Shown one piece after another: positions 1 through 10,285 of a DNA stretch of 10,285 bases. The notes under the pieces are model-generated. The model had not been told where the DNA came from and did not search any database. It saw only the letters and a program-made list of their open reading frames with translations. Source of the stretch: a virus (Duplodnaviria; Heunggongvirae; Uroviricota; Caudoviricetes); the IMG/VR virus record IMGVR_UViG_2531839374_000022, one strand, 5' to 3'. How positions within the stretch are numbered: the first letter of the stretch is position 1; every line of letters begins with the position of its first letter. Both the position numbers and the translations under genes were made by a program.

Positions 1-2433
1 TTACTCCGTCTGCTCAATAATCTGCTGGTGCTCTTTGTTCCCCGTGCCGAACTCACGCAACCACGCATTGTAGCTGTGCTGTATCGCATCACGGCACGTT
101 TGATCATCCCAGCCAGTAACCACGCCACCCAGCAGTAAAGCAGCCTCCAGAATGGCGAACCTTGCCCCTACACGGTGAACCTGTTCCCCATAGTCGGCAG
201 GAATAAGACTGCGCCAGCGGGCTTCACAGTCACGAACGGTATCAATGGCCTGCTGCTGGTGGCCTGCAAGCCATCTGATCCACTCCCGCCCGGCAGCGCC
301 GTGATTGCTCTGCCACGCGGATTTTAATGCGTCTGCATGGTCTTTCCCTGTCTGGTGCTCATGAAAGCGCACCGCCTTACTTAACGGGATATTCAGCAGG
401 CGCACCAGTTGCCCCGCTTTTGTCTTGCGTCCTGCGGTGGCAATGAACGTTTCTAAATCCATTTCCCCGGTGCTGATTGCCACGGTACGCCAGCGTTTTA
501 GATCCCGATTTCCGCCTTCTTTCGCGCCCTGCAATTTCCCTACGCCGTTAAACAGGGCATAGGCAGACTGAGAAACGCTTATCGGGTCTGCGCCCTGTCC
601 GACTTCATCCAGCGGCATCAGTCCGTCATTGTGGGCGGCGGCCTCGTTTATCAGCCCCAGCGCCGTCCCGTACCACGTCAGGCGCAAGGCATCAGGGTTC
701 CCGTATAGACTGCTAGCCACGTTCTGCGTGGTTGTTTTCCCGGCGCTCGATTGCTCATAAAAATGAATCCCGAATCCGTCACGCTCTGCCACCCCGATTA
801 ATGGCGCTGCCAGTGCTGCGGCAATGCCTGTCATCATCGCGTAGTTGCCGTATGCCAGCCGCGCGACACTGTTGCGCCAGCTTTCCGGCGTTCCTGCTAC
901 GGTATACCCGGCAGCGGCTGAACTGCGCCCGCTGAACAAAACAGGCCGCTCAGGTGTGCCGATGATTTCCCCGTCCGGCATGATGTATGCCCCGCACTGC
1001 CAGCCTGTAGCATGAGCAACGCGCCACAATTCACGCGAGCCGCTCCGCTGTAGCCAGTCGGCAAGGATCGCCCGTAAACTGCTTTTGGTCGTGACGTTAA
1101 CCCCACCAGCTTTCAGGGTGCGCCAGCCTTCACGCTCGCCAATATCAGCCAGCGGGATAGCCGCTGTTGTCGGTATGCCTGCACCGAATGCCAGCCATGA
1201 GATAATAAGATACTGATCTTTGTCGTCGCGTCCCGTGCCGATAACCTCCAACGGGGAACATAACCAGCTTTCAGCGTTGACGATCTCCCCGCTTTCCTTG
1301 TCCACCTTCGGCGTTACCCAGAAAACGCCATCTTTGCGGCTCTCAATGTGGGGTTTTAGTGGATCTTTCTCTGGATGGTCAGTTTTACCGCCCTCAATGG
1401 CTTGCAATCGCGGTTTCACGGCTTCCCCTTGAATCTGGTACATCGAATCGTTAAACGCAGCCGTAGCGACTTCCAGCCCGTTTTGCTGGCGGTAGTCGTC
1501 CCAGTCGGCTTTGTAGTCTGTCGGCGGCAGCGCCACCCAGCCAGCCACGGATAAGGCGGCTTTCTCTGCGGCATCTTTGCCCGTGTTCGCCTGGTCGTCC
1601 TGCTGGTGGTCGTTATCTGCGGCAATGATAATCTGCGTGGCTGGATATATCCGGCGCATCACTTCGGCAACGGGTAGCAGGTTGCCCGCGTCAATTGCTG
1701 CCACTGCCAGCGCGTCCGGGCGCATCAGGTGAACTGAAAGGGCCGTCGCCAGCCCCTCGGCAATTAAAACGCTCTGCGGCGATTCTGGCGCGTTTACGGC
1801 GTGATATGCCCCGCGCTTTGCTGAACCTGTCAGGAGTCGCTTCTCTCCCTGCGGTGTAATGGTTTGCGCTGCTGCCACTGCGCCGGATTCGTCCACCAGC
1901 TCCAGCAATAACGAACCATCCGGCATAACCGGATAGTTAAACCCGGTCAGCCCTTTTGATTGCAGGTAATCAGATTCGCCCTGTGTGGCACTCTGGCGCA
2001 TTCCGGCATACAGATGGGCAAACGTAGCCCTTCGCTGCTCTGCGTCCTCTGCTGCCTGTTTCTGGCGCTCCTGCTCACGCTGCTGGCGGTCAGCTTCCAG
2101 TTGCTCTCTTCTATGGCTCGCTGCCGCCGGGTCGGTTTGCGCTGCCCGGTAATCAATACCCAGCACGTCAGCGGCAAGCTGTGCCGCCTCCGTGGTGTCG
2201 CAGTTGTTTACCCGCTTGATTAAATCCAGCCCGTCACCAGCGCCACACTGGTTGCAGATAAAGCTACCGCGCCCGTTGTCGTCGAATCTGAAACGGTCTT
2301 TTCCACCACATGCAGGGCATGGAGAATGGCGGCGCGATGAATCAGGCACGTCGATAGACAATTCAGCCAGCACATAAGGCCAGCGCCCTGCTGCGGCGCT
2401 GGTCACTTCGCGGATAAGGTCGATATTACGCAT
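1..2433 (-). CDS. Bifunctional DNA primase/helicase, phage P4 alpha family (zinc-ribbon + TOPRIM + C-terminal P-loop NTPase)
   Basis: Track ORF 1..2466 (821 aa). N-terminal Cys motif CPACGGKDRFRFDD...FICNQCG (primase zinc ribbon), TOPRIM-like LIAEGLATALSV and IIIAADNDHQ, Walker-A-like SSAGKTTT in the C-terminal half. Likely true start is the ATG at 2433 (MRNIDLIREV...), which has an AGGAGG Shine-Dalgarno 7 nt upstream; the track start at 2466 is an in-frame upstream extension. Stop codon at 1-3. Confidence 0.88.
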   Translation of the reverse strand: MRNIDLIREVTSAAAGRWPYVLAELSIDVPDSSRRHSPCPACGGKDRFRFDDNGRGSFICNQCGAGDGLDLIKRVNNCDTTEAAQLAADVLGIDYRAAQTDPAAASHRREQLEADRQQREQERQKQAAEDAEQRRATFAHLYAGMRQSATQGESDYLQSKGLTGFNYPVMPDGSLLLELVDESGAVAAAQTITPQGEKRLLTGSAKRGAYHAVNAPESPQSVLIAEGLATALSVHLMRPDALAVAAIDAGNLLPVAEVMRRIYPATQIIIAADNDHQQDDQANTGKDAAEKAALSVAGWVALPPTDYKADWDDYRQQNGLEVATAAFNDSMYQIQGEAVKPRLQAIEGGKTDHPEKDPLKPHIESRKDGVFWVTPKVDKESGEIVNAESWLCSPLEVIGTGRDDKDQYLIISWLAFGAGIPTTAAIPLADIGEREGWRTLKAGGVNVTTKSSLRAILADWLQRSGSRELWRVAHATGWQCGAYIMPDGEIIGTPERPVLFSGRSSAAAGYTVAGTPESWRNSVARLAYGNYAMMTGIAAALAAPLIGVAERDGFGIHFYEQSSAGKTTTQNVASSLYGNPDALRLTWYGTALGLINEAAAHNDGLMPLDEVGQGADPISVSQSAYALFNGVGKLQGAKEGGNRDLKRWRTVAISTGEMDLETFIATAGRKTKAGQLVRLLNIPLSKAVRFHEHQTGKDHADALKSAWQSNHGAAGREWIRWLAGHQQQAIDTVRDCEARWRSLIPADYGEQVHRVGARFAILEAALLLGGVVTGWDDQTCRDAIQHSYNAWLREFGTGNKEHQQIIEQTE

Positions 2434-2767
2434 GGTTGCCTCCTGCCACGGTCGCGCCCATATCATTAATCATGCTTTGCCATATCTCGCGCCCGATGTC
2501 AGTCAATCCGTCCTTAGTGACGCAACGATCAAGAAGCTCGATCCCCACGATTTCCCACTGCGGGTAGCGCACTTTCATGGCTGCCAGTGCGTAGCTATCA
2601 ATCAGGCTGCGAACGCCTTTTACTCCATTGACGATTTCCACACGGACGGCGAGGCCGTCCGCATCAATCATGAAATAGTCCCCGCCGCTGGTGGAAGTAA
2701 TGTGGTTATACAGTGCCGCCGCATACTTATTCGCCAGCGCATTCAGTCGGAAATTTTTAGTAATCAT
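2426..2767 (-). CDS. Hypothetical protein (113 aa), last gene before the primase
   Basis: Track ORF; ATG at 2767 preceded by GAGGGG Shine-Dalgarno; stop lies 2 nt before the primase start at 2433. No motif recognised. Confidence 0.6.
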   Translation of the reverse strand: MITKNFRLNALANKYAAALYNHITSTSGGDYFMIDADGLAVRVEIVNGVKGVRSLIDSYALAAMKVRYPQWEIVGIELLDRCVTKDGLTDIGREIWQSMINDMGATVAGGNHA

Positions 2768-3378: not shown

Positions 3379-3592
3379 GTTTCGCCTCGCCTGAATGATT
3401 CTGTAACTCATATTTGCCCAACAATTCGTCAGCTTCCTGAATAGCTTCTGGTACGCCATTGAGCAGTGACATAACCGCGCCAATCATTAACTTGTCTCTG
3501 TTGCTGGGGCTGGCCCCTTCAAGCCAGAACCCTAAAACAGTCTGAACCTGTTCGATGCGACATTGCGCTTCAATGAGCTGGATGTTGGTCAT
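3371..3592 (-). CDS. Hypothetical small protein (73 aa)
   Basis: Track ORF; ATG at 3592 with GGAGAG Shine-Dalgarno; ATGA start/stop overlap with the upstream ORF (stop at 3589). Confidence 0.55.
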   Translation of the reverse strand: MTNIQLIEAQCRIEQVQTVLGFWLEGASPSNRDKLMIGAVMSLLNGVPEAIQEADELLGKYELQNHSGEAKHE

Positions 3593-3852
3593 TTCGCACT
3601 CTCCACATCGATTAAACTGATATCTATCAGGGAGGTAACTTTTTGTAGCCAGCTATTGATTACTGTCGCCTGTTCCCCTCCCACCGAGGGAACAATCTCA
3701 TTCATCACATGAACCAGACCTGTGCGCGCTCTGGTAAGCCGTTCAGTCGCGCAATCTGCGGGAGTGAATGTGTCTGGATATGGCTCTTCGCGCCCCAGCA
3801 ATGATTCAATTTCCAGCTCACACGGATGACGATAAATTAAGTTGATATTCAT
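3589..3852 (-). CDS. Hypothetical small protein (87 aa)
   Basis: Track ORF; ATG at 3852 with GGGGGTG Shine-Dalgarno; ATGA overlap with the upstream ORF (stop at 3849). Confidence 0.55.
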   Translation of the reverse strand: MNINLIYRHPCELEIESLLGREEPYPDTFTPADCATERLTRARTGLVHVMNEIVPSVGGEQATVINSWLQKVTSLIDISLIDVESAK

Positions 3853-4043: not shown

Positions 4044-4254
4044 TGGTTGCCCCCCGTTTTCCTGACATTTCGCCACCTTCCAGCAGGAAATGAACGTCAC
4101 GAACGGCGAGATCCAATATCGCGAGTAACGCCTTCAGTTTTTCGTCTCGTGAGGGAGAGTTGCTCACCAGAATGTCATTAATCACTTCTGTCAGTGTGAT
4201 GATCTGGCTTGTGCGTTCGAGGGGATCCATATGCACATCGTAGGTTTTAATCAT
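4036..4254 (-). CDS. Hypothetical small protein (72 aa)
   Basis: Track ORF 4036..4344; preferred start is the ATG at 4254 (MIKTYDVHMDPLE...) with a GGAGGTG Shine-Dalgarno; it overlaps the stop of the upstream ORF (ATGATTAA). Confidence 0.55.
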   Translation of the reverse strand: MIKTYDVHMDPLERTSQIITLTEVINDILVSNSPSRDEKLKALLAILDLAVRDVHFLLEGGEMSGKRGATNE

Positions 4255-4441
4255 GTGCCACCTCCATGCGGATACGACCAGCAAAAAAGCAGACGTGATC
4301 GCGCACCAGAGAACGGCGAGCATCGCGTTCAGACTCGGCAGCAATATGATGAATTTTGGCGGTAATTGTCGGGCAATCGCGGCGAACTGCGGCGATAATC
4401 CAGATAAATTGCGGTTTTTGGGTAGGGGTAGTAGCCAGCAT
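4247..4441 (-). CDS. Small protein (64 aa), first gene after the structured leader; possibly Icd-like (host cell division inhibitor family of P1/P4-like elements)
   Basis: C-terminal 64 codons of track ORF 4247..5002. ATG at 4441 has a strong AAGGAGG Shine-Dalgarno 7 nt upstream. Sequence MLATTPTQKPQFIWIIAAVRR...FFAGRIRMEVAHD. The Icd-like assignment rests on position directly after a C4/CI-like leader and a remembered resemblance; it is not verified. Confidence 0.5.
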   Translation of the reverse strand: MLATTPTQKPQFIWIIAAVRRDCPTITAKIHHIAAESERDARRSLVRDHVCFFAGRIRMEVAHD

Positions 4442-4444
4442 AGC

Positions 4445-4710
4445 GGCAGCCTCCTTTGTGTTTAAGGAGTCACCGCCTGAGTTTCCACGCTCTGAAATGG
4501 CGGTGACGTTAGCAGGGGTGGAAATACCGGACACAAAGGAAACCGGCCTACGCGAACGTAGCCCCACTAACGCCACCATTGATACAGTACGGACTAGGCC
4601 GCTGATTTGATGTGCGTAGTGATCGGACACAAAAAAAGACGCTTTCGGCGTCTGTGTCGCCCTGAGTGTGTTCGGGTTTCCACGCCCGGTTGCTGATTTT
4701 GCAGCAACGC
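4445..4710 (-). ncRNA. Candidate structured leader / antisense-RNA immunity region (P4 CI / P1 C4-like): hairpins, direct repeats and a terminator
   Basis: On the minus strand: hairpin GTTGCTG-CAAAAT-CAGCAAC (plus 4689-4708); direct repeat GCGTGGAAAC at plus 4676-4685 and 4481-4490; a complementary TTTCCAC at plus 4518-4524; direct repeat TTTGTGTCCG at plus 4624-4633 and 4528-4537; UUCG-loop hairpin at plus 4548-4561; 9-bp stem GTCACCGCC/GGCGGTGAC (plus 4469-4477 and 4499-4507) enclosing one repeat copy, immediately upstream of the Shine-Dalgarno at 4449-4454. The family assignment is inference. Confidence 0.35.
4631..4653 (-). terminator. Rho-independent terminator (minus strand)
   Basis: Minus strand reads AGACGC-CGAAA-GCGUCU followed by UUUUUUU; 6-bp GC-rich stem at plus 4637-4642 / 4648-4653, then a run of seven T on the minus strand (plus 4631-4637, the last shared with the stem). 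Confidence 0.55.
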
Positions 4711-4940
4711 TTGGACTATAACAGCTTTTCTCTGCTAGGTGGTCATACCAGATAAAACCGTAACCCTTTAAGAGTTTTTCCTGTGCACGGCTCACCATCT
4801 TTTTGTTGAGGGTAAGCGCCTCGCGTACTGGTAACGGAACTCCGGGCGCTGCGGTATCAATATCAGGTTTTATAAGGTTGTAAGGGTTAACATTTGTTAA
4901 CAGGCCAGCCAGATTAAAGGCTTCTTTCTGGGCGGCAGGT

Positions 4941-5123
4941 TCATTCAGTATCACGGCGCACCTCCACGAACTCATTAACGAATCTCTCCAAAGGCTGAAC
5001 ACATGGCGACTGATAGCCCTCGCGGTAAAAGGTCACTCGGTTATGCTCGACGCGCTCAACGGTCACTACAGCCCCGTGCGAATCCTTGTAACGGCTTCCC
5101 GGCATCGGATTGTGGTTACGCAT
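4941..5123 (-). CDS. Hypothetical small protein (60 aa)
   Basis: Track ORF; ATG preceded by GGAGGT Shine-Dalgarno; start overlaps the stop of the antirepressor-like gene by 8 nt (translational coupling). Confidence 0.5.
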   Translation of the reverse strand: MRNHNPMPGSRYKDSHGAVVTVERVEHNRVTFYREGYQSPCVQPLERFVNEFVEVRRDTE

Positions 5124-5938: not shown

Positions 5939-6370
5939 TTATGCGGCGGTGAGATTGTCCGGGTATAGATTGAGAGTGTCGGCAATTTCAGGCTGAGAAA
6001 GTCCCTGATAGCCGCCAGCGTCGGCGTTATGGTTCACAAGCCGAATAACTTTTAGAACGTCACCGCGCCCGGTAAAGCGATAGCGTAAATGTGACCCTAT
6101 CCCGTCGGGGTTCTTTTCGTCTATACGCTCAAGCTGAATATCAAGCCTGCGCTCTAACTCGCTGGCGTAGTTCCTTCCAGACGAAAGGCGGCAATAACGC
6201 AGAATGTCATTTTCTGTCCATCCCTCTATACCAGTACGCAGCATATAGACTCTGGCACGATGCTTTTTCGGTGTGCGCTTTGGTGCTTGAAGGGATTTTG
6301 TAAGGGGCGTAACATCAGATACGCGAATATCTGAATTAGCCGCCTGTAATGGGCGGTTTTTCTTTTCCAT
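5939..6370 (-). CDS. Hypothetical protein (143 aa), translationally coupled to alpA
   Basis: Track ORF; its ATG shares the A of the alpA stop codon (TGATG overlap). Basic N-terminus; no motif recognised. Confidence 0.6.
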   Translation of the reverse strand: MEKKNRPLQAANSDIRVSDVTPLTKSLQAPKRTPKKHRARVYMLRTGIEGWTENDILRYCRLSSGRNYASELERRLDIQLERIDEKNPDGIGSHLRYRFTGRGDVLKVIRLVNHNADAGGYQGLSQPEIADTLNLYPDNLTAA

Positions 6371-6573
6371 CAGGCCACCTTCCCGCGGCGTTCTGCCAGC
6401 CAGTTGTGAATCTCAACCGCATCAAACGCAGTTATTTTTTCTCCCAGCTTTACCGGACGTGGTAGTGAACCGTTTCTTACTTTACGGTCGATGGTGGATA
6501 CACTAACGCCCAGCAATTCAGCCAGGCGGAAGCGTCTGATATAGCCTTTTGTAGGGATAGTGTCGATGTTCAT
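6370..6573 (-). CDS. alpA: AlpA/Vis-family helix-turn-helix regulator (prophage CP4-57-type regulatory protein / excisionase-like)
   Basis: 67 aa; RFRLAELLGVSVSTIDRKVRNGSLPRPVKLGEKITAFDAVEIHNWL fits the AlpA-family helix-turn-helix pattern; GAGG Shine-Dalgarno upstream of the ATG at 6573. Confidence 0.85.
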   Translation of the reverse strand: MNIDTIPTKGYIRRFRLAELLGVSVSTIDRKVRNGSLPRPVKLGEKITAFDAVEIHNWLAERRGKVA

Positions 6574-6612
6574 GATTCCCGTAACCTCTTAGCGATAGTT
6601 GTTGCTTCGTTA

Positions 6613-6617
6613 CGGGT
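6613..6617. repeat. IS2 target-site duplication, left copy (CGGGT)
   Basis: CGGGT immediately outside the IS2 end at 6618; identical pentamer at 7949-7953. IS2 is known to make 5-bp duplications. Confidence 0.8.
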
Positions 6618-6628
6618 TGGATTTGCCC

Positions 6629-7534
6629 CTATATTTCCAGACATCTGTTATCACTTAACCCATTACAAGCCCGCTGCCGCAGATATTCCCGTGGCGAGCG
6701 ATAACCCAGCGCACTATGCGGATGCCATTCGTTATAATGTTCGAACGCCTCTGCAAGGTTCTTTGCTGCCGTTAACCCGTCTGGTTTGGGCATGATACTG
6801 ATGTAGTCACGCTTTATCGTTTTCACGAAGCTCTCTGCTATTCCGTTACTCTCCGGACTCCGCACCGCCGTGTTCTTCGGTTCAAGTCCCAACATCCGGG
6901 CGAACTGGCGTGTTTCATTAGCCCGGTAGCATGAACCATTATCCGTCAGCCACTCCACTGGAGACGACGGAAGATCGTTGCCGAAGCGGCGTTCCACCGC
7001 TCCCAGCATGACGTCCTGTACTGTTTCACTGTTGAAGCCGCCGGTAGTCACCGCCCAGTGCAGTGCCTCACGATCACAGCAGTCCAGCGCGAACGTGACA
7101 CGCAGTCTCTCTCCGTTATCACAGCAGAACTCGAACCCGTCAGAGCACCATCGCTGATTGCTTTCTTTCACGGCCACTCTGCCTGTATGTGCCCGTTTCG
7201 ATGGCGGTACAGCAGGTTTTCGCTCAAGCAACAGCGCATTCTGGCGCATGATCCGGTAAACACGTTTGGCATTGATCGCAGGCATACCATCAAGTTCTGC
7301 CTGTCTGCGAAGCAGCGCCCATACCCGACGATAACCATACGTGGGCAGCTCTCCGATAACATGGTGTATACGGAGAAGCACATCCGTATCATCAGTGTGA
7401 CGACTGCGGCGGCCATCCATCCAGTCATCGGTTCGTCTGAGAATGACGTGCAACTGCGCACGCGACACCCGGAGACAACGGCTGACTAAGCTTACTCCCC
7501 ATCCCCGGGCAATAAGGGCGCGTGCGCTATCCAC
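6629..7534 (-). CDS. insD: IS2 transposase OrfB (InsD), 301 aa
   Basis: Track ORF; protein [34 protein letters not shown]... matches IS2 InsD as remembered; GTG start; expressed as the OrfAB fusion by -1 frameshifting. Confidence 0.95.
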
Positions 7535-7857
7535 TTTTTTGCCCGTCCATATTCAACGGCTTCTTTGAGGAGTTCATTTTCCATCGTTTTCTTGCCGAGC
7601 AGGCGCTGGAGTTCTTTAATCTGCTTCATGGCGGCAGCAAGTTCAGAGGCAGGAACAACCTGTTCTCCGGCGGCCACAGCAGTAAGACTTCCTTCCTGGT
7701 ATTGCTTACGCCAGAGAAATAACTGGCTGGCTGCTACACCATGTTGCCGGGCAACGAGGGAGACCGTCATCCCCGGTTCAAAGCTCTGCTGAACAATTGC
7801 GATCTTTTCCTGTGTGGTACGCCGTCTGCGTTTCTCCGGCCCTAAGACATCAATCAT
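7492..7857 (-). CDS. insC: IS2 transposase OrfA (InsC)
   Basis: Track ORF 7492..7902 has an upstream GTG extension; the canonical InsC start [26 protein letters not shown]... is the ATG at 7857. Confidence 0.95.
7534..7541 (-). other. Probable IS2 -1 programmed ribosomal frameshift site (A6G slippery run) in the insC/insD overlap
   Basis: Minus strand reads GGGCAAAAAAGTGG in the InsC/InsD overlap (plus ccactttttt gcccg at about 7531-7545). Frameshifting at an A6G motif is established for IS2/IS3-family elements; the exact position here is by eye. Confidence 0.5.
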
Positions 7858-7948
7858 CTGTACTCCAATGACTAGTCTAAAAACTAGTATTAAGACTATC
7901 ACTTATTTAAGTGATACTGGTTGTCTGGAGATTCAGGGGGCCAGTCTA

Positions 7949-7953
7949 CGGGT
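7949..7953. repeat. IS2 target-site duplication, right copy (CGGGT)
   Basis: CGGGT immediately outside the IS2 end at 7948, identical to 6613-6617. Confidence 0.8.
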
Positions 7954-7962
7954 ATTTAATGG

Positions 7963-8025
7963 CGTGCACGCTCAAAAAGGAATGATCGTATTTTTTACTA
8001 TCGTGATAGTAAAATTTACTATCAC
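7963..8025. promoter_or_regulatory. Operator-like palindrome cluster between the orphan gene and IS2/alpA
   Basis: Perfect 10-bp palindrome GCGTGCACGC (7963-7972); inverted repeat TACTATC-gt-GATAGTA (7996-8011) with a third half-site TACTATCAC (8017-8025). On the plus strand GTGATAGTAAA / TTTACTATCAC can pair and is followed by CTTTTTTT (8026-8033), so the same sequence could act as a plus-strand terminator. Confidence 0.35.
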
Positions 8026-8870
8026 CTTTTTTTCCCTGCCGTGGTGCGTTCTTCCGGTGTTCTGTCTGTGTCGGCTATGAGTTTCTTCAGGTAATCTATG
8101 GATGGCTCATCATAGCCGCCCCCCAAAAGCGCCCAGTGGTTTATTGTGGCGTTCGCCCATGCTTCGTTGGTTTCCTTCCCGTTCTTCCCTTTACACTCTT
8201 CTGGGTAGTGCCGCTTCACATAAATCAACGCCAAGAGGCAAATTTCGCGCTTTTGCCTGTGGCGCTCTCTGTTTCCGTGCTCAACGTTTTTAACATCCTC
8301 ATAAAGAGCTTGTAAGTTTATGCGAGTTTCGGGGCTGTATATGGGCTGGTTTTTGTCCATGCATTCGCCGATATATTCAACCCACGGCCTTGTTATGTAC
8401 AAATCCTCTACGGATATTTCGTGGAAGGCATGTTTTGTATAATCGAGAAAAAAATAATAATTCGCACTTACGTCTAGTTCTCTTTTTCTGTGTGCGGGGC
8501 TGAATATGCGTGCGGGAGTGTCAATAGAATCAAGCCCTGCGATGTCGAGTATATAGGAGGCGTTAACATGCCATAGCCCAAGCACATGGCAATCTATATG
8601 ATTTACAACGCCTGCCTTAAAGCTTTTTTCGTCCTCTACTTCAGTGATTATGTCGGCAAGTAATAAGCAGTCTTCTTTGACGTCTGGGAATAAAGAGCAA
8701 TTGCGGTAAAGACTCGCGATGCTATGTAATGTGCCGTCGTAGCCGCAAAGGTACGCGCTCAAATATATAGATTCTGCCGCCGCCATAATCAAAAGATCAT
8801 CAATATCTATTTCTAATAATTCGGCTGCTCTGTTAAGCCTGAAAAAAGGGGCGGGTGGTAATTTTTTCAT
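8022..8870 (-). CDS. Hypothetical protein (282 aa), AT-rich orphan cargo gene between the integrase and alpA
   Basis: Track ORF; ATG at 8870 preceded by AGGTGA Shine-Dalgarno. The DNA is visibly more AT-rich than the rest of the window (long A/T runs; exact GC not computed). N-terminus FFRLNRAAELLEIDIDDLL is weakly helix-turn-helix-like; no catalytic motif recognised. Confidence 0.65.
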   Translation of the reverse strand: MKKLPPAPFFRLNRAAELLEIDIDDLLIMAAAESIYLSAYLCGYDGTLHSIASLYRNCSLFPDVKEDCLLLADIITEVEDEKSFKAGVVNHIDCHVLGLWHVNASYILDIAGLDSIDTPARIFSPAHRKRELDVSANYYFFLDYTKHAFHEISVEDLYITRPWVEYIGECMDKNQPIYSPETRINLQALYEDVKNVEHGNRERHRQKREICLLALIYVKRHYPEECKGKNGKETNEAWANATINHWALLGGGYDEPSIDYLKKLIADTDRTPEERTTAGKKR

Positions 8871-8965: not shown

Positions 8966-10285
8966 TTAGTTCGCCCTTCTGAGAGGCGTTACGTTGTAGT
9001 CTTTTCCGCTTTCCAGTGCCACCAGCAGATCAGCCCACTGTGCCAGTGCTGCTTTACGCTCATCAAAATACTGATGGCGGTTATAAATCCCCTCTACGCC
9101 CTTAATGCGATGATTGAGGCATCGTTCCGCCACAACAGGATCAACACCCAACGCTGCTAAATGAGTACGTGCGGTGCGTCGAAAGTCGTGAATCGTGAAA
9201 TTAGGCACATCCGGCATTTCGGCGCGAACCTTAGCCAGTGCTACGGGTAAAGTGCTTTCCTGAATATGTGGGATCATTCTGTTTTGCATCTTCCTGGCCG
9301 GAAGCACCCATGCGCTATTACATGAAAAGGTGTGTAGCTCTCTCAACCATTCAACGGCTGGGGAAGGTAGAGGTATATCAATAGGGTCTCCGTTTTTGCT
9401 GCGTTCTTCCGGCAAATGCCATACCGCACCATCTAAATCAAACTCTTCCCATCGTGCGGCGCATAATTCCATTTTGCGGACGCATAACGCTAACAGTAAT
9501 TTGAACGTGATTTCGTTCTGGCGACTGAATCCCTTAGCCGTGCGCATGGCTTTGAATAGCTGGATTAACTCATCGCGGGTTAACCAGCGGTCACGGGCAG
9601 CTTCTTTCCCTCCGGCGTCTGCCACCTCAAAGGCTGAACAGGGGTTAATCTCTAGCGCGTGCCGTTTGATTCCGTAGTCGAATATGCGGCGCGTCCATCT
9701 CAGCACGTCCGTTGCTATGGTCGGCGCTCCACGGTCAACAATACCTTTCAGCATGTCATCGATATGGCGCGGTTTCACGTCCTCTACCTTCATGCTGCCA
9801 ATGCAGGGGTTTATATCTTTGTCGATACGGCGGCGGAGTATATCGGGGTGCTTCCAGCGCGGGAGGATCTGACGCTCAAAGTATTCAGCGGCAAGCTCTG
9901 AAACGCGCATAGCGTTCTTCTCTGCTTCCATCTTCGCCAGTGCTTCGGTTTTGCGCTTCTGCTTCTCTCCTGCAACGTCATAGCCCAGCGCAACGCGAGC
10001 CGATAGCTCTTTGGCTGTCTCTCTGGCCTTTGATAGTGATAGCTCGCTATACGAACCAATTAGCATGGCGCGGGACTTCCCTGCGAGTTTATAGCGGAAT
10101 CTCCATGTGGGGGTTTTGTCGGCTTCACGGTAACGTAGGTATAAACCGTTACCGTCTGCCCGCCCCTCGAATCGCTCTCCGCTCTTAATCCATGCGCGGA
10201 TCTGCATGTCTGTTAGTTTTGGCATTTTGCGAATATCCAAACTTTGAATAGGGGGTGTACCCAAAGCAATGTACCCAAACCTCAT
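8966..10285 (-). CDS. int: Tyrosine-type site-specific integrase, P4-like family (N-terminal arm-binding domain + catalytic domain)
   Basis: Track ORF of 439 aa reaching the window edge. N-terminal GNGLYLRYREADKTPTWRFRYKLAGKSRAMLIGSY matches the P4-type arm-binding (DUF4102-like) pattern; C-terminal HDFRRTARTHLAALG...NHRIKGVEGIYNRHQY carries the R/H-x-x-R/Y catalytic signature. A more typical start is the internal ATG at 10225 (MPKLTDMQIRAWIK...). Confidence 0.9.
   Translation of the reverse strand: MRFGYIALGTPPIQSLDIRKMPKLTDMQIRAWIKSGERFEGRADGNGLYLRYREADKTPTWRFRYKLAGKSRAMLIGSYSELSLSKARETAKELSARVALGYDVAGEKQKRKTEALAKMEAEKNAMRVSELAAEYFERQILPRWKHPDILRRRIDKDINPCIGSMKVEDVKPRHIDDMLKGIVDRGAPTIATDVLRWTRRIFDYGIKRHALEINPCSAFEVADAGGKEAARDRWLTRDELIQLFKAMRTAKGFSRQNEITFKLLLALCVRKMELCAARWEEFDLDGAVWHLPEERSKNGDPIDIPLPSPAVEWLRELHTFSCNSAWVLPARKMQNRMIPHIQESTLPVALAKVRAEMPDVPNFTIHDFRRTARTHLAALGVDPVVAERCLNHRIKGVEGIYNRHQYFDERKAALAQWADLLVALESGKDYNVTPLRRAN

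Follow-up and report, generated by a model that had tools for sequence, protein, structure and literature searches.

An AT-rich orphan gene between int and alpA

The DNA analyzed here, a 10,285-nucleotide stretch of the IMG/VR virus record IMGVR_UViG_2531839374_000022 (hereafter the window), carries all of its genes on the minus strand (Table 1). In the direction of transcription they are a P4-type tyrosine integrase gene (int), an open reading frame (ORF) that we call X and that is the subject of this study, a copy of the insertion sequence IS2, the satellite activator gene alpA, and a primase gene; a 143-amino acid (aa) ORF, an AntA antirepressor, DUF4222, and several small ORFs lie, in window order, between alpA and the primase. 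The element is a phage satellite of the published EcCIMP1 class with added P4-like features. As in Gram-negative phage-inducible chromosomal islands (PICIs), int and alpA are co-directional and followed by a primase/replication module, and the core is free of phage structural and lysis genes, whereas the P4-type integrase, alpA/vis, C4/CI immunity RNA, and alpha-type primase are those of P4-like satellites. An earlier analysis made from the sequence alone (the original prediction) had drawn the P4 analogy, which these four components bear out only in part: no psu, delta, or sid lies between int and alpA, and the element resembles an EcCIMP1-type PICI. The ORFs of the window, which stops inside the primase, include no evident copy of any of the three, and no search was aimed at them.

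In Gram-negative PICIs the helper phage must switch on alpA, and neither a repressor nor the inducer has been identified (PMC6092414; PMC11773190). EcCIMP1 itself is mobilized by the P22-like phage Kapi1, and its alpA is helper-induced and autoregulated (PMC11773190). How such islands sense a helper has been puzzling since 2018, and the family described below provides a concrete, testable candidate.

Table 1. Features of the window (positions are those of the 10,285-nucleotide stretch).
Feature	Position	Strand	Remarks
P4-type tyrosine integrase	8966-10285	-	Arm-DNA-bind_3, Phage_int_M, Phage_integrase
int-alpA RNA motif RF02996	8891-8957	-	Rfam covariance model; ends 21 nt upstream of X start
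X	8022-8870	-	282-aa ORF under study; undescribed family
Palindrome O1	8003-8025		GTGATAGTAAA-T-TTTACTATCAC; perfect 11-nt arms; holds X stop codon; candidate protein-binding site
Repeat O2	7984-8002		GATAGTAAAAAATACGATC; less perfect second copy, 21 nt (two helical turns) from O1
Rest of cassette 3' flank	7949-7983	-	Putative alpA promoter region; -10-like TTAAAT at 7954-7959, weak -35
IS2 (IS3 family)	6618-7948	-	1,331 bp; orfA 7492-7902, orfB 6629-7534; 99.9% identical to annotated IS2 copies
alpA leader stem-loop	6578-6616	-	CCCGTAAC ... GTTACGGG; just upstream of alpA start; right edge of cassette
alpA	6370-6573	-	Satellite master activator gene; PF05930; proposed target of X cassette (PMC6092414; PMC11773190)
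c4-a1b1 targets	4669-4721	-	Rfam
isrK-like RNA	4632-4708	-	Rfam
C4 antisense RNA	4496-4583	-	Rfam
Primase, alpha-like	1-2466	-	Toprim/DUF927; runs past window end

X is a real, conserved gene: its strand and coordinates are right, and its MKKLPP start is kept in homologues. Its GC content of 45.2% is the lowest of the window genes (52.4% for the window overall), and the low GC is concentrated in codons 1-196. The original prediction had correctly described a genuine gene, visibly AT-rich relative to its flanks, outside any known family, bracketed by inverted repeats and lying between int and the alpA region; it overlooked the 1,331-bp IS2 that now separates X from alpA, the P4-type C4 immunity RNA, and the identity of the upstream repeat, which is the closing stem of RF02996 (the downstream repeat is the 11+11 palindrome O1). 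Its further suggestion, that AT-richness marks separate acquisition, is not supported. X is the most AT-rich gene in every island (GC 34-45% versus 50-62% for the flanks), and because this trait is constant across the family it is no mark of recent acquisition in the window island.

X defines an undescribed, very fast-evolving family

No Pfam, NCBIfam, PHROG, or PADLOC model matched X (the best PADLOC-DB v2 score was only 12 bits, E = 0.016). A set of 40 family members likewise gave no meaningful defence, NCBIfam, or Pfam match, with a single chance-level hit to PADLOC-DB v2 (E = 0.0068); the only model matched was phrog_7144, a PHROG with no function attached, which eight of them hit. Sequence searches of the PDB with the single X protein and with two profiles returned nothing significant, the family alignment found no loci in GTDB representative genomes, tblastn found no match in the phage collection, and the accession numbers of the family were not found in the literature. 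Homologues came from protein collections, in which a word-indexed search of 5.8 billion proteins returned six clusters and an exhaustive HMMER search of 1.84 billion representatives returned 46 clusters (at 50% identity) at E <= 0.001, 22 of them at E <= 1e-10. X belongs to an undescribed family that evolves very fast and whose members are typically about 280-360 aa long.

The 40-member family alignment divides the protein into four parts. Residues 1-37 form an acidic MerR/Xis/AlpA-like, winged-helix-like domain with the family motif PPLEYCxLxRAAxLLxCxxxDLLHxAxxGAIxL. Next come a hypervariable acidic insert (residues 38-150) in which G-L-W is conserved, a conserved strand and helix (DLYISRxxVExI in X at residues 155-172, DLYISRxxxEKI in the family), and a basic helical module (residues 197-282) that ends in RTTAGKKR and carries the motif HGNxERxAxxRExxLxAAIYxxxxYPxEC...AWA. 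The C-terminal module occurs in several subtypes, and in the E. coli allele L025 it is swapped for an unrelated 70-residue segment, which leaves as the family core the N-terminal domain together with the insert and DLYISR helix. R208 is the sole invariant residue, so that the family has no catalytic signature; neither an effector, nuclease, NTPase, or membrane domain nor catalytic residues were recognized in it.

X travels between islands together with its 3' flank

In every comparison between islands, X is the most diverged syntenic gene. Between the window and E. coli 042, int is 92%, X 56%, and alpA 98.5% identical; the corresponding values are 90%, 33%, and 73% for Enterobacter (primase 87%) and 64%, 23%, and 73% for a Klebsiella circle (AntA 84%). 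Between islands whose int and alpA agree at 98-99%, X alleles are found that are about 20% identical and unalignable as DNA. The islands L011 and L018, for example, share 99.2% of int, 100% of the int-X spacer, and 99.0% of alpA, with X not alignable and the X-alpA spacer 67.5% identical. The reverse combination is found in L018 and L020, where X is 99.8% and the X-alpA spacer 100% identical in the presence of integrases that share only 66.3%, alpA genes that share 87.3%, and int-X spacers that share 81.7%, a figure depressed by extra sequence at the L020 int end. The mosaicism is reciprocal (L018 versus L020; L011 versus L018/L019), the promoter-proximal repeats described below lie inside the unit, and X and its 3' flank are exchanged between backbones as one unit. 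The comparison of int-alpA intervals that the original prediction had proposed therefore gave the outcome it anticipated, slot content varying between near-identical backbones.

The breakpoints are sharp. The left one is the X start codon, right after the invariant spacer that holds the int-alpA RNA; all four islands compared have the same spacer sequence between this motif and the start codon of X, and the 95-nt int-X spacer with RF02996 is 100% identical despite 66% identical integrases and X alleles of about 20% identity. The right one coincides with the 5' arm of the conserved leader stem-loop, about 43 nt before the alpA ATG. The exchanged unit accordingly consists of X and about 70 nt of downstream DNA.

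The RNA motif at the left edge scores 60.6 bits in the window against a gathering score of 35.8 (model positions 1-71 of 71, E = 7.9e-12). It also lies upstream of X in L011, L018, L020, L021, and L023, and is absent from half of the X-bearing islands scanned. Of 5,426 complete E. coli genomes, 191 contain it, and wherever its surroundings were inspected an X-family gene came directly after it. RF02996 could act as the leader of X rather than as a free small RNA.

Palindromic repeats between X and alpA

Two palindromes with the half-site GAYAnTAAA, their centres 21 nt apart, run from the stop codon of X in the window, 042, Enterobacter, and IMG/VR alleles, all of which share one C-terminal subtype. 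The window has three exact GATAGTAAA half-sites, all within 7994-8023. What is conserved here appears to be the DNA half-site rather than an RNA hairpin, since the 042 and Enterobacter repeats fold like shuffled sequence (z = -0.4 and -1.2, respectively) and the variable fifth half-site position is uncompensated between the arms. O1 was also considered as a terminator of X and ruled out for the window allele type, which has no coding-strand T-run and whose relatives fold like shuffles. Alleles of another C-terminal subtype (L018, L019, L021, and L013) have a GC-richer, terminator-like hairpin downstream of X, and for the L018, L019, and L013 types the terminator reading does fit. In two of the alleles with such a hairpin, a different palindrome, TGTTCATATATGTACA or TGTATATCTATACA, then follows in the presumed alpA promoter stretch. 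By eye, the palindrome TTGTATATCTATACAG in the putative alpA promoter spacer of L019 (about 2625-2640) agrees at 14 of 16 positions with the LexA-box consensus CTGT-N8-ACAG; alpA induction in related islands is reported as SOS-independent.

The repeats vary with the X allele over a range in which AlpA is constant at 98-100% identity, and hence they do not track AlpA. A comparison of AlpA and X proteins across islands is not by itself decisive on which of the two would bind the palindromes, the mosaics being more informative. Diverged islands of one subtype nevertheless keep the repeats, which speaks for a function.

A consensus promoter scan of the window found nothing in the putative alpA promoter region, where TTAAAT, directly before the leader stem, may be the alpA -10 of the window type by our own reading of the sequence. 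The alpA leader, folded sequence by sequence, keeps its structure with differing stems: 8 bp in the window, 10 bp in the Klebsiella circle (L009), an unrelated stem of 12 bp in L023, and a shifted one in L026. Shine-Dalgarno-like purines lie at or within its 3' arm, and the stem-loop may serve in translational control or as a site bound by AlpA.

One family usually occupies the int-alpA slot

The order int-X-alpA was found in nine of nine island lineages, at three or more attachment sites, a sample that is biased because the islands were found through X homology. In every island the three genes lie on one strand, with X always directly downstream of a P4-type integrase and, in several, separated from it by only 4-18 nt. 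X islands lie next to yicC in E. coli, Shigella, and Enterobacter and at a different site in Raoultella and Klebsiella; X is also present on an IMG/VR contig and in three metagenomic lineages; in one of these three the AlpA ORF is clear although it had not been called. A 22,859-bp circular Klebsiella pneumoniae "plasmid" (L009; NZ_CP033626.1) is an excised island with int-X-alpA followed by primase, SSB, and PerC; it is typed as non-mobilizable and also carries a superinfection-immunity gene and a gene for a 932-aa tape measure protein. On the contig L024, an AlpA-type ORF (...VTIWRWTANGRLPKPVKLSERVTAWRVEDIRQWM...) at about 6444-6730 is uncalled in the source annotation, and P2-type tail genes (Phage_TAC_7, GpE) lie downstream of the primase.

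Sampling of the E. coli slot through its flanks is unbiased and gave six gene types in the yicC islands. Five are X-family alleles (042; L018/L020; L019; L025; and the window type, in Shigella). The sixth (L026 2256-3377, L027 2223-3344) contains an unrelated 216-aa protein with no Pfam match (WP_001059729.1), the gene for which overlaps the integrase stop codon; after it come 470 nt of 34% GC in which no gene is annotated. This protein was considered as a cryptic relative of the X C-terminal module, which was ruled out (hhalign probability 0.2%). In L028, a tRNA-Thr island of the EcCIMP1 type, the slot has no annotated gene. Non-X content in some islands means that X is the usual but not the obligatory occupant. 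The variable cargo slot of the original prediction is thus right in so far as content is exchanged and some islands hold an unrelated gene or no X; it is not a slot for diverse cargo, one family accounting for five of six E. coli types and all nine lineages. Near-identical E. coli backbones carry at least six slot variants, five from the X family and one unrelated, and so offer a ready-made allele-swap system.

Predicted structure and charge of X

AlphaFold2 with the family alignment gave X a mean predicted local distance difference test score (pLDDT) of 81, with values above 90 for residues 1-40 and 200-270 and of 52-88 per 10-residue block in the insert; modeled alone, the C-terminal module reached 88.5. 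Fold searches returned weak winged-helix matches only, among them Xis and AlpA-type excisionases, and a structure search of BFVD returned nothing. The X N-terminus aligns in register with the AlpA proteins of the islands, with the basic residues of their recognition helix exchanged for acidic ones. AlpA/Xis/MerR hidden Markov models (PF05930, PF12728) gave no significant match for X, HTH_17 was matched by one of the 40 relatives (E = 0.005, under the cut-off), and an hhalign comparison with AlpA was weak (probability 24%). A possible arrangement is a split winged helix-turn-helix, made of the N-terminal 40 residues and the DLYISR helix with the insert in the wing; spliced cores had no Pfam match (best E = 0.099).

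Over the 40 members, mean net charge is -3 for the N-terminal domain (never positive), -9.6 for the insert, and +3.3 for the C-terminal module. Residues 8-37 carry a net charge of 0 to -6 in all 40, unlike the basic or polar surface of a DNA recognition helix, and D25 in the N-terminal helix is nearly invariant. If X binds nucleic acid at all, the C-terminal module is the more plausible binder, because it is the only basic part of the protein. The N-terminal domain may have been turned into a protein-interaction surface.

X as a candidate regulator of alpA

We tentatively propose that X provides the protein component of a swappable, immunity-like regulatory cassette that controls alpA in an EcCIMP1/P4-related satellite next to yicC. 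The exchange of X together with the DNA just upstream of alpA makes it a candidate link between the helper phage and satellite activation. We hypothesize that X would be produced from an int-X transcript in the quiescent island and would bind the paired palindromes beside the alpA promoter, probably via its basic, C-terminal winged-helix-like module, so as to set alpA transcription on or off. The hypervariable acidic insert would be the surface that contacts a helper-phage protein, and each allele would make activation dependent on particular helpers, in the manner of Stl in staphylococcal islands. That X binds DNA, that it represses or activates alpA, and that it senses a helper are all inferred.

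Several observations weigh against this proposal. First, no DNA-binding family is detectable in X by sequence, its N-terminal domain is acidic, and every fold match is weak. Second, related islands without X remain helper-inducible, and the island is already equipped with a C4-type RNA immunity system. Finally, mere physical linkage to X is sufficient to explain why the repeats follow the X allele.

A regulator-plus-sites cassette is known from phages and Gram-positive islands and is undescribed for Gram-negative satellites. The Stl/Rpr repressors of Gram-positive PICIs (the Staphylococcus aureus pathogenicity islands, SaPIs) resemble X in lying between the integrase and the lytic-cycle regulators, in their size of about 250-350 aa, and in their extreme divergence between otherwise related islands. 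The likeness is one of position, size, and divergence; the two are not related in sequence or, with any confidence, in fold. Stl and the genes that it represses are divergently transcribed, and Stl has a recognizable helix-turn-helix, whereas X is co-directional with int and alpA, has no helix-turn-helix detectable by sequence, and begins with an acidic domain. A stronger form of the proposal, which we consider rather unlikely, makes X the Gram-negative counterpart of Stl: the missing master regulator through which many enterobacterial satellites, a large class, would sense their helper, with an insert that binds a helper protein and cassettes that define interchangeable immunity or helper-specificity groups and recombine freely between island backbones.

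The immunity regions of lambdoid phages offer a second parallel, being likewise reciprocal mosaics with sharp breakpoints in conserved flanks, in which a protein and promoter-proximal palindromes travel together and paired sites lie two helical turns apart. The X cassette differs in having no CI/Cro-type homology, a single regulator gene, operators that are putative, and, in some alleles, a terminator-like hairpin in place of the paired sites. From AlpA/Vis/Xis winged-helix proteins (PF05930, PF12728) X differs in being four to five times longer, with a large insert, an extra C-terminal module, and an acidic recognition helix. EcCIMP1 shares with X islands AlpA, the AntA antirepressor, Ash, the DUF927/Toprim primase, and PerC, and has relatives with P22-type ejection homologues; its tRNA-Thr integration and its integrase are different, and its int-alpA slot, which has no X, is taken by EcCIMP1_002, an unrelated small ORF whose reported size is about a tenth that of UvrB. 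In this context, homologues of P22-type ejection proteins (Inj_translocase, P22 gp16) lie downstream of the primase in an E. coli island (L001 18428-20846), which is consistent with a P22-like helper, as for EcCIMP1.

Alternative functions

The main alternative, possible if doubtful, is that X is instead a single-protein, non-enzymatic factor acting against phages or interfering with the helper, through superinfection exclusion, as an abortive infection (Abi) trigger, or by inhibiting a phage protein. Its insert would then follow phage escape, and the repeats would be merely a terminator or 3' untranslated region, as the terminator-like hairpins after several alleles might suggest. The slot is exchangeable and AT-rich and may hold the unrelated 216-aa gene or no X-family gene, and the extreme divergence of X in a conserved backbone looks like the product of an arms race. 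EcCIMP1, moreover, confers superinfection immunity without a recognizable defence system (PMC11773190). The original prediction had pointed to anti-phage cargo, and nothing specific to defence emerged: the 40 members gave no PADLOC match above chance, X has no effector domain, catalytic motif, or catalytic residues, and the slot contains no partner gene.

The comparison with P4-like elements bears on this reading in both directions. The integrase-proximal hotspots of P4-like satellites are reported to be rich in defence systems (Rousset et al. 2022); the P4 hotspot lies between int and psu, with many unrelated, often recognizable systems. The X slot is similar in its AT-rich, exchangeable content beside a P4-type integrase, in an element with C4/CI-type RNA and an alpha-like primase. 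It differs in lying between int and alpA and in holding nearly always one family that matches no defence model; the recurrence of that family in five of six E. coli types and in all distant islands is unlike a mixed defence hotspot. Palindromes that are phased by 21 nt as two DNA sites, not RNA hairpins, are also left unaccounted for. If X does act against phages, it would represent a new satellite-borne, non-enzymatic defence family, and either outcome would assign a function to the neighbouring int-alpA RNA motif.

Regulation by X could also bypass promoter DNA and act on the AlpA protein or on RNA, the N-terminal domain serving as a decoy or anti-activator of AlpA or its partner, or the C-terminal module controlling translation from the alpA leader or the int-alpA RNA. 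The N-terminal alignment with AlpA, acidic in place of the basic recognition helix, and the presence of two conserved structured RNAs on either side of X (RF02996 and the alpA leader stem-loop) make this conceivable. We nevertheless regard it as improbable, given that the similarity to AlpA is as weak as noted above, that RF02996 is missing from half of the scanned islands, and that conservation of the leader stem follows AlpA rather than the X allele.

An accessory role in recombination is very improbable. According to this idea X would set directionality or attachment-site choice for the adjacent integrase via an excisionase-like domain, which would suit the excisionases among its fold neighbours and its place directly after int, where gaps of 4-18 nt in several islands suggest co-translation. 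The mosaics disfavour it because they uncouple X allele from integrase type: one allele occurs with integrases 66% identical, and integrases 99% identical occur with unrelated alleles. In addition, alpA and int are necessary and sufficient for excision in related islands (PMC6092414, PMC11773190), and the excisionase-like domain is acidic.

That X is a decaying or non-functional remnant in an IS-ridden island, as the IS2 insertion in the neighbouring regulatory region and a partial Shigella record among close relatives might suggest, is scarcely credible for an intact frame that is 99-100% identical to copies in IS2-free islands and whose motifs are conserved over 46 clusters (the one near-identical allele pair compared has one synonymous and one non-synonymous difference, too few to inform on decay).

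State of the window copy and additional features

In the window island IS2 has entered the region of the leader 5' arm, 44 nt before the alpA ATG and 73 nt past the end of X, with a 5-bp target duplication (CGGGT at 6613-6617 and 7949-7953). It is not present in the otherwise identical islands L007 and L017 (X 99.6-100% identical), and its excision in silico restores the exact X-alpA spacer of IS2-free relatives. Because it splits alpA and its leader from the promoter-proximal DNA of the cassette, control of alpA by X has probably been lost in the window copy, and this island may be locked or misregulated. The strain is probably a Shigella, to judge from the closest relative with a name. IS2 and alpA have the same orientation, and read-through or a hybrid promoter could now drive alpA.

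Further downstream, the C4 antisense RNA, the isrK-like RNA, and the c4-a1b1 targets together are an RNA immunity module of the P4/P1 type. The trio falls within a mechanically called ORF (4247-5002, the ash region), and the same trio is found in islands of Enterobacter, Klebsiella, and E. coli 042. An 87-aa ORF in L026 (6254-6517), homologous to the window ORF 3589-3852, is named "nicotinic acetylcholine receptor subunit beta" in RefSeq, an evident misannotation.

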